A stretch of 28,336 nucleotides of DNA from an uncultured Nitrososphaerota archaeon (GTDB taxonomy: Archaea > Korarchaeota > Korarchaeia > Korarchaeales > Korarchaeaceae). Location of the stretch: contig CAZQNA010000015.1 in assembly GCA_964594835.1 (NCBI GenBank), positions 1,210 through 29,545 of the forward strand, written 5' to 3'. How positions within the stretch are numbered: position 1 is the first letter of the stretch; every line of letters begins with the position of its first letter. Made by a program: the position numbers and the translations under genes. Under the pieces are notes generated by a model. That model was not told the DNA's origin. It saw only the letters and a list, made by a program, of their open reading frames with translations, and searched no databases. Of this stretch, positions 18,722-26,474 are shown piece by piece.

Positions 18722-18916
18722 TTATGGAGCATAGGCCACGACCACTCTATGCCTGATCAAGTCAACCGAGACCTCCTTGACCCCCAGGAACTCTAACACA
18801 TCTCCCTCCTCGTTCATGAGGGTGACCCTGTCCCCTCTGACGCTGACTGAAACCACCTCCTCCATTACAGTCTTCTCAGACCCCTCGGATATCACCAGAG
18901 CAACTCCCTCACACAT
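18722..18916 (-). CDS. cooT: CooT-family nickel chaperone for CO dehydrogenase, 64 aa
   Basis: From ATG 18916: MCEGVALVISEGSEKTVMEEVVSVSVRGDRVTLMNEEGDVLEFLGVKEVSVDLIRHRVVV. Cys at position 2, a His near the C-terminus, small all-beta pattern; last gene of the CODH operon. Confidence 0.8.
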   Translation of the reverse strand: MCEGVALVISEGSEKTVMEEVVSVSVRGDRVTLMNEEGDVLEFLGVKEVSVDLIRHRVVVAYAP

Positions 18917-18966
18917 GAAGATCCCCCCATTCAACGCGGGATTGAAAGAAAATTCAGGGCGGGGAG

Positions 18967-19731
18967 TCAAGGCCGCGGCTGAAATAGCCTCCTGTGGACG
19001 GGGGTAAAGTGATCTTCGAGTCCCAGGGACTCCACCGGCTCTCCTAGAGCGTAGGCGATCGGCTGAGTCACGTGAAGAACCGGAAGGGTTCCCCCGCCAT
19101 AGAAGTCCAACATGAAGTGGCAGAGGTTGCAGATGGTGACTACGCACTCTGCCCCGGTAAGGCTAGCAGACTCGAGCACGGACTTGGCCAGCTGCCTCGC
19201 GCGTTCTGGTCGGCGGAGGAATATTGGCCCGCCACAGCACTTGAGCCTCATTCTGAAGTCCACGGGCTCAGCGCCGATCGCCGCCAGGAGTTCCTCCAAG
19301 ATTTGTGGATCCTCGGGGTCGTCGATGGCCTGCTCCCTGGGTCTCAGCGCCTGACATCCATAGTAGGGGGCGACCTTGACGGGCCAGCCTCTGATCGCCC
19401 TGTTTGCGATCTCCTGCGCTCCAATGTCCCTGCCGAGGAACTCGACCAGGTGCCTGACCTCGACGCCGCCACGCCTGAGCGTGCCATAGCAGCCGGAGCA
19501 TCCTGTGACGAGAGTCGCTCCACCCGCAGCCTCGGCGACGATCTCGGACACCCTGCGGGAGGCCTCTCTGTCCACCATCTCCAGCTCTACGGTGCCGCAG
19601 CATGGCGCGTCCTCTAGTAGGCGGTAAGGCACATCAAGCCTCTTGAGCACAGCTTTGGCGGTCTTTAGGTATGGTCTCTCAGTGGTCAGCGCGGAGCACC
19701 CAGGATAGTAAGCCACCTCAGCCTTTGACAA
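18967..19731 (-). CDS. hdrB: Heterodisulfide reductase subunit B-like (two CCG domains)
   Basis: YYPGCS...CCG...GCSGC and YYGCQ.LRP...CCGG...TICNLCHFMLD, PVLHVTQ. Confidence 0.88.
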   Translation of the reverse strand: MSKAEVAYYPGCSALTTERPYLKTAKAVLKRLDVPYRLLEDAPCCGTVELEMVDREASRRVSEIVAEAAGGATLVTGCSGCYGTLRRGGVEVRHLVEFLGRDIGAQEIANRAIRGWPVKVAPYYGCQALRPREQAIDDPEDPQILEELLAAIGAEPVDFRMRLKCCGGPIFLRRPERARQLAKSVLESASLTGAECVVTICNLCHFMLDFYGGGTLPVLHVTQPIAYALGEPVESLGLEDHFTPVHRRLFQPRP

Positions 19732-23896: not shown

Positions 23897-25854
23897 CACT
23901 CCGGCCAGCCCAGTGCCCTCCTCTTCTCCAGGATGTGAGCCATGATGGCCTCGGCAGCCTTCACCGGGTCGGGCTCTACTAAGAACTTCCCTCCCACAAG
24001 GTCCTCCGCCTTGTCGGTGAGTATCTCAACGACCTTCTTGCTCCCAAGCACCGGAGGAACCGTCCCCAGGTGCACCAGCAGTCCGGACGCCACGAAGTAG
24101 GAGCCGATGGAGACAGCCTTCTCGCTCATCCACTCTGGCGCAGACCCCGCTGCCGGGAGGTCAGGTATGTCAACTCCAAGGTGCTCCGCCAGCGCCGCCA
24201 GGGCTATCAGCATCCTGGAGCAGTCTACGCAGCTTCCCATGTGCAGGGCTGGCGGGATGCCGAGGGCCTTGCAGACCTCCTTCAGCCCAGGTCCGGCAAG
24301 CTCGGCGGCCTCTGGGAGGAGCAGGCCGTGCTTTCCCATGGCGATGGCCCAGCAGCCGGTGCCCACAATGAGGACATCCCTCTTAATCAGCTCCTTCGTC
24401 AGAGTAACGTGGCTGTGGTCGTGCTTGACCTTTGGGTTGACGCAGCCCACGATTCCGACGATCCCCTTTATCTTCCCCGTCCTCAGAGCCTCAGCGAGGG
24501 GCTCGAGCGTGCCTCCAAGAGCCTCTAGTATGGCCTCAACGCTGAATCCGGCCACGAGTTCTGACTTCTCCTTCGGTATCATTACCCTGGCGGGATTTCT
24601 ATTCTTGAAGTTCTCGACAGCAATCCTCACGATCTTCCTCGCGGTCTCGATGGCGTTGGCCTTGTCGAACTCGATGTGTATTGCGCCGGGGATGTGGGCC
24701 TTAGGCTCCGTCGTTATCACCTTGGTGTGGTAGCAGGAGGCAACGTCCACGATCGCCGGCATGATGCACTGGTAGTCCACAATGACGGCCTCGAGAGCGC
24801 CGGTGGCTATGGCGAGCTCCTGCTGGAGCATGTTGCCAGCTATGGGGACGCCAAGCCTCATGAGCACCTCGTTACCGGTGCAGCACATCCCGACGACGTT
24901 TATCCCGCCCGTCGCACCGAGGTCCTTTGCCATCTGAACCAGCTCGGGGTCGCTGGCGACCTCGGCGATCTTCATGGACAGAACAGGGTTGTGGCCGTGC
25001 ACCAGTATGTTGACCGCGTCCTCTCTCAGCACCCCGAGGTTCGCCACAGCTCTGAGCGGTTTCGGCGTCCCGAACATGACGTCGCTGAGGAGCGTGGCCA
25101 TCATGGAACCGCTCCATCCGTCCGCGAGGGCGCACCTGAGCCCCTGGGCAATGAGCGTGAGCGGGTCCGCGTCGACGCCCATGTGCGTTCTGTGCATTAT
25201 CTCCGTGATCTCTCTGTCAATCGCGCGGGGCATTATCCCGACCTTATTCCATACCTCCTTCCGCTTCTTGGGGGCGTAGGCCTCCACCAGTCTGAGGGGC
25301 TCCTCTCCAGGCTTGCCGAACTCCCACTCCATTATCTCGGCAACTTCCTTCGCTAAGTCGTTCAGCTCCCTGCCCTCAACCTCCAGCCCGAGGGCGCGGG
25401 CTATCCCCCTCAGCTTCTCCGGGTCTTTGATCTCGTAATCCTTGGCCCATCCGTCAGGTATCCCCTTGAAGACTTCCACAATGTCCCTGGCGTGATCGCT
25501 GTGAGCGGCGGCCCCTGCGGCGAGCATCCGCATAAGGTTCCTTGCCACTATCGTGTCGGCAGTGGCCCCGCAGACTCCCCTCTGGGGGCCGTATCCGAAC
25601 GGATCGATTCTGCACGGTCCCATGTTGCAGTTCCTGCAGCATACCCCCAGAAGGCCAAACCCGCACTGCGGCTGCTGGGCCAGGTACCTGTGCCAGGCTG
25701 TCTCGGCGCCGTCCATCTCGGCCTTCTCTAGGAGCTGTGAGACTGTGGGGTCAATGGAGACGGTCTCGTAGAACTCCCTCCTCGCGCTCCTCATGAGCCT
25801 CTCGTAGATCCTCTCGGAACCGGGCTTGTCTCCCTCAACCCCCGCTGCAGTCAT
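23896..25854 (-). CDS. cooS: Anaerobic Ni,Fe carbon monoxide dehydrogenase catalytic subunit
   Basis: D/B clusters QCGFGLLGVCCRNCNMGPCRI and GVCGA; AAHSDH; C-cluster ligands HGHNP, GMCCTGNE, DYQCIMP, VGCVNP, TGCW, HMGSCVD; EWMSEKA. All canonical ligands are present. Confidence 0.96.
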   Translation of the reverse strand: MTAAGVEGDKPGSERIYERLMRSARREFYETVSIDPTVSQLLEKAEMDGAETAWHRYLAQQPQCGFGLLGVCCRNCNMGPCRIDPFGYGPQRGVCGATADTIVARNLMRMLAAGAAAHSDHARDIVEVFKGIPDGWAKDYEIKDPEKLRGIARALGLEVEGRELNDLAKEVAEIMEWEFGKPGEEPLRLVEAYAPKKRKEVWNKVGIMPRAIDREITEIMHRTHMGVDADPLTLIAQGLRCALADGWSGSMMATLLSDVMFGTPKPLRAVANLGVLREDAVNILVHGHNPVLSMKIAEVASDPELVQMAKDLGATGGINVVGMCCTGNEVLMRLGVPIAGNMLQQELAIATGALEAVIVDYQCIMPAIVDVASCYHTKVITTEPKAHIPGAIHIEFDKANAIETARKIVRIAVENFKNRNPARVMIPKEKSELVAGFSVEAILEALGGTLEPLAEALRTGKIKGIVGIVGCVNPKVKHDHSHVTLTKELIKRDVLIVGTGCWAIAMGKHGLLLPEAAELAGPGLKEVCKALGIPPALHMGSCVDCSRMLIALAALAEHLGVDIPDLPAAGSAPEWMSEKAVSIGSYFVASGLLVHLGTVPPVLGSKKVVEILTDKAEDLVGGKFLVEPDPVKAAEAIMAHILEKRRALGWPE

Positions 25855-26474
25855 TCAGACCACCTCACGGTCTCATACATTTCCCTGAGAGATGCGAGGG
25901 GGGACTTAGGAGCCTTCTCAACGGGCCTGGCGTATACCACAGCCGCCTCCGCGAGACCCAGCACCATATCCGCGGCCCTTCTGATCTTCTCCCGGTCAAG
26001 GATGTCCTCCGCCCTGCCGTATCTGAGGGCACCAGTTGGGCAGGCCTCGACGCACGCTGGCGGGAGTCCAGCCCTGAACCTATCCACGCAGTGATCACAC
26101 TTCACCACCTTCCTCCTGAAGTCGTAGGTCGGGTGGCCGAAGGGACAAGCGAGAAGGCACGTCCGGCAGCCTATGCACTTCTCGAGATCAGATACGACGA
26201 AGCCCTCCTCAGTCCGGTGCATGGCCCCAGTTGGGCAGGCCTCGATGCACGGGGCCGGATCACAGTGCATGCACCTCATGGGAACGTAGACGCCGGCGGC
26301 CGGAACTACCTTCGTCCTCGGCTTCGGGGCGGGGTCCTCGAAGACGGCCTTGTACAGCTCCCTTGAAGAGGAGTGCTCAACCGCACAAGCTATCTCGCAG
26401 CTCCTGCACCCCACGCATCTCTCGGGATCAACGTAGATGAGGTATTCCAGGTAGCTCGGAGGGACGGTTGTCAT
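25851..26474 (-). CDS. cooF: CODH-associated 4x[4Fe-4S] electron-transfer protein CooF
   Basis: CVGCRSCEIACAVEH, CMHCDPAPCIEACP, CIGCRTCLLACPFG, KCDHC...PPACVEACP; its stop overlaps the cooS start. Confidence 0.9.
   Translation of the reverse strand: MTTVPPSYLEYLIYVDPERCVGCRSCEIACAVEHSSSRELYKAVFEDPAPKPRTKVVPAAGVYVPMRCMHCDPAPCIEACPTGAMHRTEEGFVVSDLEKCIGCRTCLLACPFGHPTYDFRRKVVKCDHCVDRFRAGLPPACVEACPTGALRYGRAEDILDREKIRRAADMVLGLAEAAVVYARPVEKAPKSPLASLREMYETVRWSE

Follow-up and report, generated by a model that had tools for sequence, protein, structure and literature searches.

A carbon monoxide dehydrogenase operon with an inserted HdrABC-MvhD block in Korarchaeaceae: a candidate CO-fed disulfide reductase

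The window analysed here is a stretch of 28,336 nucleotides (nt; G+C content 63%) from an uncultured Nitrososphaerota archaeon (GTDB Korarchaeaceae; assembly GCA_964594835.1, contig CAZQNA010000015.1; genome G000). Its right-hand third carries ten genes, all on the minus strand, in the order corQ-corR-cooF-cooS-cooC-hdrA-mvhD-hdrC-hdrB-cooT, which combine a carbon monoxide dehydrogenase (CODH) with the subunits of a heterodisulfide reductase (Hdr). We propose, with moderate confidence and from sequence-based evidence, that CooS-CooF feeds HdrA through an MvhD protein fused to a ferredoxin (MvhD-Fd), and that CO would drive the reduction of a disulfide other than that of coenzymes M and B (CoM-S-S-CoB), probably together with that of ferredoxin. 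We are much more confident that the ten genes form one functional, co-inherited unit. The distinctive feature of the operon is the CooF/MvhD-Fd adaptor. An earlier reading of the same DNA (the original prediction) had described a CODH wired directly to HdrABC-MvhD. The gene order and strand were confirmed, and the Pfam and NCBIfam assignments agree with the gene names; corQ-corR, directly upstream on the same strand, and the two-[4Fe-4S] ferredoxin and four-cysteine (Cys4) domain fused to MvhD had been overlooked. The idea that CooS/CooF serves as an input module for Hdr is supported in silico by synteny, co-occurrence, the failure of any other donor to match, the adaptor and a complex model. 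It would not be a third type of input, as had been claimed, since inputs from NADH (FlxABCD; PMC4703632) and from F420H2/ferredoxin (HdrA2B2C2; PMC9723716) have already been described.

The CODH module is conventional in its content. CooS, the Ni,Fe CODH catalytic subunit (652 amino acids, aa; 23896-25854), passes the equivalog cut-off of TIGR01702 (774.2 bits versus 478) and matches Prismane with 634 bits, and 15 of 16 cysteine residues were invariant in all nine sequences compared. The electron-transfer subunit CooF (207 aa; 25851-26474; Pfam Fer4_11, 79 bits) has the features of its family, namely four [4Fe-4S] motifs, a length of about 200 aa and a 4-bp overlap with cooS; the 16 cysteines of the four motifs were likewise invariant (9/9 sequences). 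CooC (268 aa; 23093-23899), a nickel-insertion ATPase with a P-loop of the CbiA/ParA/MinD type in Pfam, is encoded syntenically with cooS and has a CxC motif (C123, C125) that is kept in 10 of 10 sequences. CooT (64 aa; 18722-18916), the nickel chaperone of CODH, starts with MCEG and scores marginally in Pfam (26.6 bits versus a cut-off of 27); despite this score, Cys2 is invariant in ten of ten orthologues. A group-4 [NiFe] hydrogenase with membrane subunits accompanies cooFSC in the relative G014 and in the Asgard locus L007, and was not found in the window. Family scans of the window genes also bore out the earlier statement that neither MvhAG, Fdh, an energy-converting hydrogenase nor acetyl-CoA synthase (ACS) is encoded within the window.

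The Hdr module is complete with respect to cofactor ligands. HdrA (659 aa; 21109-23088), a subunit of the bifurcating type with flavin adenine dinucleotide (FAD) and six [4Fe-4S] clusters, aligned over its full length with 5odc_A (E 2.4e-197) and also with 8rvu_a, with all the cysteine motifs of the clusters visible. The glutamate of the FERL motif (E363) and the lysine of the LKQA motif (K415), which had been singled out as positions associated with the bifurcating FAD, do align with the corresponding residues of the solved methanogen HdrA, and both residues and 27 of 28 cysteines are invariant in the ten orthologues. HdrA also retains every domain and ligand of the bifurcating enzyme: the FAD-binding thioredoxin-reductase fold, the N-terminal cluster domain, the C-terminal ferredoxin domain and the inserted ferredoxin domain, the last of which corresponds to the low-potential branch. 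HdrB (18967-19716; 249 aa from GTG 19716, or 254 aa from TTG 19731) contains two CCG motifs (Pfam CCG, 89 bits over two stretches), with ten cysteines invariant in 10/10, and aligned with 8rvu_b (E 1.5e-26). HdrC (161 aa; 19718-20203, with an alternative start at GTG 20200; Fer4_17) has eight cysteines in two [4Fe-4S] motifs, again invariant in all ten. The best NCBIfam matches were the HdrA2 model for HdrA (808 bits, cut-off 1100) and TIGR03288 (HdrB; E 1e-32, 113 bits, cut-off 345) for HdrB; HdrC matched TIGR03290 (E 4.6e-13, 49 bits, cut-off 160). All three proteins score below the curated cut-offs and should be read as homologues, not equivalogs, of the methanogen enzymes.

The MvhD-Fd fusion (302 aa; 20197-21105; Pfam FlpD, 152 bits, and Fer4 families) links the two modules. 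Residues 1-140 constitute the MvhD domain with its [2Fe-2S] cluster (FlpD match over residues 14-135; alignment with 5odc_D, E 1.3e-32); the CC..C..C..C..C motif of this cluster is invariant and the gene adjoins hdrA. The extension consists of a two-[4Fe-4S] ferredoxin (residues ~175-232) and a CxxC...CxxC stretch (residues ~261-286), and its 12 cysteines are invariant in 10 of 10 orthologues. It matched HycF (E 2e-12) and HyfH (E 1.3e-11) in NCBIfam and 7z0s_F of formate hydrogenlyase (E 2e-9). Its best match outside its own gene was a HycF-like subunit of G014 (L181:3047-3544; 29% identity over 168 aa, E 9.5e-15), whose gene stands between those for HycE-like and HycG-like proteins, in a hydrogenase cluster that comes after cooF-cooS-cooC-cooT. 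In L007, the hydrogenase encoded after corR-cooFSC has a 175-aa ferredoxin subunit that was 32% identical over 93 aa (E 6e-15), and both matches scored higher than any other locus of G000, the genome of the window. Among relatives, the 12-cysteine extension was present in all nine CODH-linked MvhD proteins versus none of the seven encoded beside a paralogous hdrA. In CODH/hydrogenase complexes, CooF links CooS to the hydrogenase module, in the order CooS-CooF-hydrogenase (PMC13077300). Given this bridging role and the likeness of the extension to HycF/CooX, the fusion looks like a CooF-docking subunit moved onto MvhD. We infer that, by gene fusion, a CODH-linked energy-converting hydrogenase contributed its CooF-docking ferredoxin subunit to MvhD, which gave rise to the adaptor, and that the hdr genes entered the locus between cooC and cooT.

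Multimer modelling, which had been suggested as a check, was carried out for the CooF-MvhD part and placed CooF on the extension (MvhD residues 145-302) with a median ipSAE of 0.67 (runs 0.63, 0.67 and 0.69), above all controls (best of three, 0.00). The runs shared at least 68% of contacts, with a partner pLDDT of at least 81; when the method was calibrated, 58 of 80 solved complexes and 2 of 110 mismatched pairs attained the mark. On the CooF side, the modelled contacts lie at the third cluster motif (residues 101-115); on the other side, they take in both cluster motifs of the extension and its Cys4 tail.

The junctions between the genes are tight. The pairs corQ/corR, cooF/cooS and cooS/cooC each overlap by 4 bp, cooC and hdrA are 4 nt apart, and hdrA and mvhD are separated by 3 nt, with GGGGAGGTG lying within the end of hdrA. 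The overlap of mvhD and hdrC is 4 bp if hdrC starts at GTG 20200 and 7 bp if it starts at ATG 20203; hdrB follows hdrC after 1 nt (GTG 19716) or overlaps it by 14 bp (TTG 19731). The predicted packing, with overlaps or gaps of 4 bp or less, therefore holds from cooF to hdrB with the two GTG starts, and fails for cooT, which lies 50 nt beyond hdrB and has its own Shine-Dalgarno-like run, GGGGGGAT. Start/stop overlaps of 4 bp were also found in orthologous loci, such as L122 of the complete genome G013. From the sequence of these junctions, the genes are predicted to be translationally coupled, including across cooC-hdrA. In G014, which lacks an hdr block, cooT comes directly after cooC. The hdrA-mvhD-hdrC-hdrB genes therefore behave as an insert between these two genes, in agreement with the original description of hdr genes bracketed by CODH maturation genes.

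HdrA was searched for in 41 genomes, and the phylum sample comprised 43 genomes, 21 of them CooS-positive (20 besides G000); since these genomes are kin, the counts are descriptive, not statistical. Orthologues with 70-96% identity to HdrA were confined to three genera (g1, g3 and g5) within the family to which the window belongs, and other HdrA matches did not exceed 56%. In the family sample (G001-G024), an orthologue at 70% or above was identified in nine genomes, all CooS-positive, and in no CooS-negative genome. The complete order from cooF to hdrB was recovered in G001, G004, G008, G010, G011, G013, G019 and G043; in the first seven of these, corQ-corR were also seen to precede it, and cooT sometimes follows. 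The order was seen from cooS onwards in G016, the contig of G003 ends after cooS-cooC-hdrA, and that of G041 ends inside hdrA. Overall, 11 of the 20 further genomes with CooS have hdrA directly after cooC, across three genera and with protein identities of 43-96% (43-81% between genera). Three genomes (G002, G050 and G051) were uninformative, as their contigs end too early. In two loci of genus g5 (L119 and L120), cooT was found 1.4-2.9 kb from hdrB, on the other strand and with unrelated genes between, the rest of the cluster being intact.

A metagenome scan with a profile of the MvhD fusion, which used two exact peptide words and sees close relatives only, yielded 17 loci. Seven had cooC or cooS beside hdrA, and one more, an incomplete copy, was consistent with this arrangement. 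Four loci of low G+C content (L155-L158) combined an NAD-binding module, a CooF-like gene, hdrA, the MvhD-Fd fusion and hdrCB, and the remaining five had an ordinary short mvhD.

The genome to which the window belongs (1.82 Mb in 24 contigs, with a partial archaeal small-subunit rRNA) is 97.4% complete, and the absences given below apply to this incomplete genome and to the queries named. A single Prismane/CODH match indicates that CooS is its only CODH, and hdrA, hdrB, hdrC, cooS and cooT each gave one tblastn match at E <= 1e-5, so that the window also encodes its only HdrABC. The usual electron donors of Hdr are MvhAG and FdhAB, and the usual acceptors of CODH are an adjoining hydrogenase or ACS. 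Searches of G000 gave no match for an Mvh-type hydrogenase, FrhB/FdhB, ACS (CdhC), NuoF, DsrC or McrA; the genes for coenzyme M and coenzyme B biosynthesis were not searched for. From these genome-wide searches, G000 appears to lack the usual donors of Hdr and the usual acceptors of CODH, and the proposed check for mvhAG, mcr and dsrC revealed no Mvh or Fdh donor encoded elsewhere. The [NiFe] hydrogenase matches correspond to two loci, one encoding a group-1-like enzyme with a HybA-like Fe-S protein and an NrfD-type membrane anchor, and the other a complex-I-like locus. Since McrA was not matched, CoM-S-S-CoB is an unlikely substrate, and the original term "heterodisulfide" is unlikely to apply in its CoM-CoB sense. 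DsrC was considered as a substrate of HdrB and rejected, given the lack of a match in G000. The same genome encodes, at G000:C1:177054-178679 (L003:664-2289), a 541-aa polyferredoxin with a weak FlpD/MvhD-like stretch (25 bits), adjoining a molybdopterin oxidoreductase gene and a CooF-like gene.

According to the mechanism that we propose, the ten genes would constitute a CO-responsive unit, with corQR as regulators and an operon from cooF to cooT whose product would be a soluble CODH-Hdr super-complex. CooS would oxidise CO and hand the electrons to CooF, whose four clusters would relay them to the HycF/CooX-like domain of MvhD with its two [4Fe-4S] clusters; from there they would reach the FAD of HdrA by way of the [2Fe-2S] cluster of MvhD, a position held by MvhG-MvhD in the H2-dependent enzyme. 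At the flavin the path would divide. In one branch, HdrC would pass electrons to the pair of noncubane clusters in HdrB, where a disulfide other than CoM-S-S-CoB would be reduced; in the other, the inserted domain of HdrA would most likely carry them to ferredoxin. We infer this path by homology with the solved Mvh-Hdr complexes. The overall reaction would be 2 CO + 2 H2O + Fd(ox) + RSSR -> 2 CO2 + Fd(red)2- + 2 RSH + 2 H+, and the reduced ferredoxin could feed the complex-I-like enzyme of G000, which is without a NuoF match.

The ferredoxin pool is held near -500 mV. The standard potential (E0') of the CO2/CO couple is -520 mV (PMC13077300), and a Nernst estimate, which ignores the temperature dependence of E0', gave about -345 to -415 mV at 1e-6 to 1e-4 atm CO, 0.1 atm CO2 and 80 C. 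With so little CO, the couple would be too positive to reduce the ferredoxin pool alone, and bifurcation would therefore be useful. The earlier remark that CO can reduce ferredoxin unaided is thus valid near 1 atm CO and does not apply at 1e-6 to 1e-4 atm.

Several observations weigh against a CO-fed, bifurcating complex. Six of the 20 CooS-bearing relatives (G014, G027, G028, G029, G045 and G047) lack the hdr block. In none of the best 80 of 597 CooS stretches from other lineages (best identity 69%) was hdrA beside cooC, in a scan that was not exhaustive and did not return the members of the family itself; in one Bipolaricaulota locus among these 80, hdrCBA begins ~5.6 kb downstream of cooS. 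The suggested survey of cooS neighbourhoods therefore confirmed the arrangement within the phylum (11 of 20 relatives) and showed it to be narrow. None of 16 MvhD-Fd loci from two other phyla contained cooS. The 50-nt gap ahead of cooT departs from the packing of the other genes, and an internal promoter may lie within cooC. A look-up of sequencing runs gave 17, among which no RNA run containing the locus was listed. The conserved residues of HdrA are no proof of bifurcation, and CO at high pressure reduces ferredoxin directly, so that bifurcation would not be required. The acceptor of HdrB may not be a soluble disulfide, given its score of 113 bits versus 345 and a second-best NCBIfam match to SdhE, the anchor of methylmenaquinol:fumarate reductase (E 2e-25). 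Finally, similar contacts have been solved, for example between HycB and HycF in 7z0s; the pass of the complex model therefore indicates likeness rather than binding, and it may reflect a memory of solved CooF-like/HycF-like contacts, the underlying alignments being shallow (9-10 rows).

One alternative retains the same complex and dispenses with bifurcation. The enzyme would be a CO:disulfide or CO:polysulfide oxidoreductase, in which the flavin converts one-electron to two-electron transfer and all electrons end on HdrB, for thiol regeneration or sulfur reduction. CO at high pressure is a strong reductant (E0' -520 mV; PMC13077300) and would create no energetic need for bifurcation, and in G027 cooF-cooS lies beside a polyferredoxin and CCG pair without HdrA, which suggests that a direct link from CODH to a CCG protein can suffice. 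However, a 659-aa HdrA would be superfluous in a simple reductase, its bifurcating domains and ligands are all retained (27 of 28 cysteines, E363 and K415), and the trace-CO couple lies near -345 to -415 mV. We therefore regard this alternative as unlikely, albeit worth serious consideration.

It is also rather improbable, in our judgement, that the operon is simply a regulon of separate enzymes, in which CooS-CooF would reduce free ferredoxin and MvhD-Fd-HdrABC would use it, alone or with a second donor as in HdrA2B2C2, to reduce a disulfide. The HdrA2 model is the best NCBIfam match of HdrA (808 bits, cut-off 1100), ferredoxin-linked Hdr enzymes have been described (PMC9723716), the extension could be a ferredoxin docking site, and in two other phyla none of the 16 MvhD-Fd loci had cooS. 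However, the predicted translational coupling across cooC-hdrA and the position of the hdr block between CODH maturation genes argue for a physical partnership, the extension most resembles the CooF-partner subunit of CODH-linked hydrogenases, a CooF-like gene lies beside MvhD-Fd in 12 of 14 Asgard loci, and the CooF-extension model outscored its controls.

A membrane quinone or another oxidant as the acceptor of HdrB, or a complex working in reverse (CO production), in redox sensing or in detoxification, seems very unlikely. The SdhE match of HdrB and the quinone-linked modules of G000 (NrfD-type anchors and the complex-I-like locus) favour it; however, HdrB itself is the best match (E 1e-32) with both CCG motifs intact, CO would have no consumer, as ACS was not found, and CorQR and the cooC/cooT context are typical of CO-oxidising clusters. 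A chance or recent juxtaposition of unrelated hdr and coo operons, with no functional link, can be set aside as extremely improbable: the block is separable, as G014 illustrates with cooF-cooS-cooC-cooT, but gene order and overlapping stop/start codons are kept in three genera at 43-81% identity, an HdrA orthologue was never found without CooS in the family sample, and the adaptor is confined to CODH-linked copies.

The regulatory genes upstream of the operon are consistent with a response to CO. The CorQ-like protein (183 aa; 27694-28245) has a V4R domain (Pfam, 53.2 bits), and the corR-like gene (385 aa; 26540-27697) encodes a C-terminal LysR-type helix-turn-helix (HTH_1, 47.9 bits, residues 297-358) and a radical-SAM-like N-terminus (Radical_SAM, 32.4 bits, residues 16-84). 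A corQ-like gene is kept upstream of cooF in orthologous loci, where the V4R and LysR-type pair precedes cooFSC, and a corR homologue (27% identical) precedes cooFSC in L007. We take the Thermococcus CorQR pair to have the same composition, a V4R protein and a LysR-type protein. CorQR has been described as a CO-responsive activator of the CODH cluster in Thermococcus (PMC4791640, PMC13077300), and the domain pair and its position suggest CO regulation through CorQR here. The 65-nt corR-cooF intergenic region (26475-26539) is an A/T-rich, promoter-like stretch with TTTTTACCTAAATCGGAG at 26516-26533 and with GGGGGGAT ahead of the cooF start codon. Only two copies of the motif TTTTTACC-N(4-7)-CGGAG exist in the window, both on the minus strand: the copy at 26516-26533 extends from 59 to 42 nt upstream of the cooF ATG, and that at 28246-28262 directly adjoins the corQ start codon. 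Three loci of the same genus (L117, L118 and L145) retain the motif ahead of cooF. As the pattern was derived post hoc from the same sites, an estimate of its chance occurrence is not independent and provides no test; the shared motif could be a candidate control element, either a promoter or a CorR site.

The operon is best described as a variation on two modular systems already known, in which Hdr takes exchangeable donors and CODH exchangeable acceptors, rather than as a new kind of system. It resembles MvhAGD-HdrABC of hydrogenotrophic methanogens (5odc, 8rvu), with which HdrA, HdrB, HdrC and the MvhD domain align and whose ligands and flavin-associated glutamate and lysine are kept, but cooS and cooF stand in place of MvhA/MvhG, MvhD carries the additional 160-aa ferredoxin domain, HdrB is ~40 residues shorter, and no McrA was matched. 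FdhAB-MvhD-HdrABC(-Fmd) (7bkb) and the NADH-dependent FlxABCD-HdrABC (PMC4703632) similarly plug an exchangeable donor into HdrA through an MvhD-family protein, as may be compared with L155-L158; in the window, by contrast, the donor would be a Ni-CODH rather than a formate dehydrogenase or NAD(P)H module, in a genome with no FrhB/FdhB match. With the CODH/energy-converting hydrogenase clusters of the Thermococcus type, the operon shares corQ/corR-like regulators, cooF-cooS-cooC(-cooT) and an MvhD extension homologous to the HycF/CooX-like subunit of L007 and G014, but a soluble HdrABC-MvhD replaces the membrane hydrogenase, of which the ferredoxin subunit alone survives, fused to MvhD.

Two other proposals come close. 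CodhABCSF, set out in PMC12318220 as a bioinformatic proposal only, combines CooS/CooF with a BfuABC (NuoEFG-like) bifurcating core and likewise has CooSF oxidise CO and supply the electrons to a bifurcating enzyme that is flavin-based; however, the Bfu family is unrelated to Hdr, and its acceptor is NAD(P)+ rather than a disulfide. In Culexarchaeia, CdhA is co-located with HdrA2B2C2 and an Ehe hydrogenase-HdrBC (PMC9723716). That cluster also places a CODH subunit beside Hdr genes in a non-methanogenic thermophilic archaeon and leaves the disulfide unnamed, but the CODH is of the Cdh rather than the CooS/CooF type, a membrane hydrogenase is present, and there is neither cooC-hdrA coupling nor an MvhD-Fd adaptor. 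Hdr-like clusters of orthologous groups near Ni-CODH (PMC6344411) and hdrCBA-mvhD-metVF (PMC6085454) have been reported in a Wood-Ljungdahl/ACS context. Our literature searches, which covered the text of articles, retrieved no description of a cooS/cooF-hdrABC-mvhD operon.

To our knowledge, Hdr is widespread in non-methanogens, and its partners and substrates there are mostly unknown. If the proposed CO-fed complex exists, CO would replace H2 as the fuel of HdrABC-MvhD and join the fuels for bifurcation by the Hdr family, and a CODH-fed Hdr would explain an intact Hdr in archaea without methanogenesis or Mvh and provide a thermodynamic rationale for the scavenging of trace CO. Tentatively, and with more doubt than attaches to the wiring itself, this may be the first Hdr-family enzyme to bifurcate electrons from CO, by which a non-methanogenic archaeon would charge ferredoxin from trace CO and pay with a cellular disulfide. 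All genera of Korarchaeia are reported to have an incomplete HdrABC/MvhD set, in most cases with no MvhA and with no methyl-coenzyme M reductase, a conservation that has been called puzzling (PMC10667645); the word cooS does not occur in that article. The small size of the phylum sample (43 genomes) and the hydrothermal labels of DNA sequencing runs make Korarchaeia the probable lineage of the window; Caldarchaeales, which the many aldehyde:ferredoxin oxidoreductase genes had suggested, was set aside in view of that size. If the lineage of the window corresponds to Korarchaeia, a CODH-fed Hdr would explain these orphan genes. It would also illustrate the reuse, by gene fusion, of a docking subunit of a membrane hydrogenase, with the donor enzyme re-plugged into a different acceptor. 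The operon is compact, with ten genes, and its adaptor domain is well delimited, so that it should be amenable to expression, purification and imaging.

The acceptor modules beside related CooS genes vary: a hydrogenase (L007 and G014), a NuoEFG-like module (L008), a polyferredoxin with a CCG protein (G027) and Hdr (the window). The closest CooS relatives among the matches listed, from L007 (69%) and G014 (72%), both belong to clusters of the corQR-cooFSC/hydrogenase type. In G014:C70 (L141 and L181; same family, genus g5), cooF-cooS-cooC-cooT is followed by genes for a Mrp-like antiporter and by NuoH-, HycE-, HycF- and HycG-like genes, a predicted CODH/energy-converting hydrogenase in a relative without the hdr block; the owner of this contig is less certain, because G014 is 2.9 Mb in size with 6% contamination. 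L136 (G027:C4, 3161-7615) belongs to a genome of another taxonomic order; there, cooF-cooS, with a CooS 82% identical to that of the window, lies beside a divergent pair encoding a 278-aa polyferredoxin and a 277-aa HdrB-like protein with two CCG motifs; neither cooC nor hdrA was found near cooF-cooS there. In L008 ("bacterium GBS-1", 9295-15583), cooF-cooS-cooC is followed by NuoE-, NuoF- and NuoG-like genes (CooS 67%), which appears to be the Bfu-type CODH arrangement proposed in PMC12318220.

The adaptor pair may have a wider distribution than CODH. In L173 (G853:C9, Asgard phylum, ~4274-15032), one tightly packed strand encodes the alpha, beta and gamma subunits of a 2-oxoacid:ferredoxin oxidoreductase, HdrA, MvhD-Fd and a CooF-like protein, followed by two small unknown open reading frames, hdrC, hdrB, a Fer4 protein and a FAD_binding_2 flavoprotein. 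The layout suggests a further low-potential donor that is connected to Hdr by the same two adaptor proteins. Eight of the Asgard loci (L168-L170, L172 and L174-L177) have MvhD-Fd frames of 325-376 aa beside a CooF-like gene whose product is 40-45% identical to CooF of the window; hdrA adjoins MvhD-Fd in none of the eight, and L176 alone has an hdrA match, ~7 kb away. L168, the only one of them scanned with Pfam, has as neighbours an aldehyde:ferredoxin oxidoreductase (AOR), a second CooF-like gene and an amidohydrolase. A CooF-type polyferredoxin together with MvhD-Fd may therefore be a wider, undescribed plug for low-potential oxidoreductases into HdrABC, including CODH (the window), 2-oxoacid:ferredoxin oxidoreductase (L173) and possibly tungsten AORs (L168-L177).

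The remaining genes of the window encode AORs, Fe-S proteins, amidohydrolases, an ABC transporter and a beta-propeller protein. On the minus strand, the region 2298-13244 contains three AOR-family genes, two of them with CooF-like Fe-S partners, together with a PreA-like dihydropyrimidine dehydrogenase subunit, an amidohydrolase and a Bmp/PnrA-type ABC binding protein. It may represent a tungsten-dependent island for the catabolism of nucleobases or aldehydes that adjoins the CO operon.

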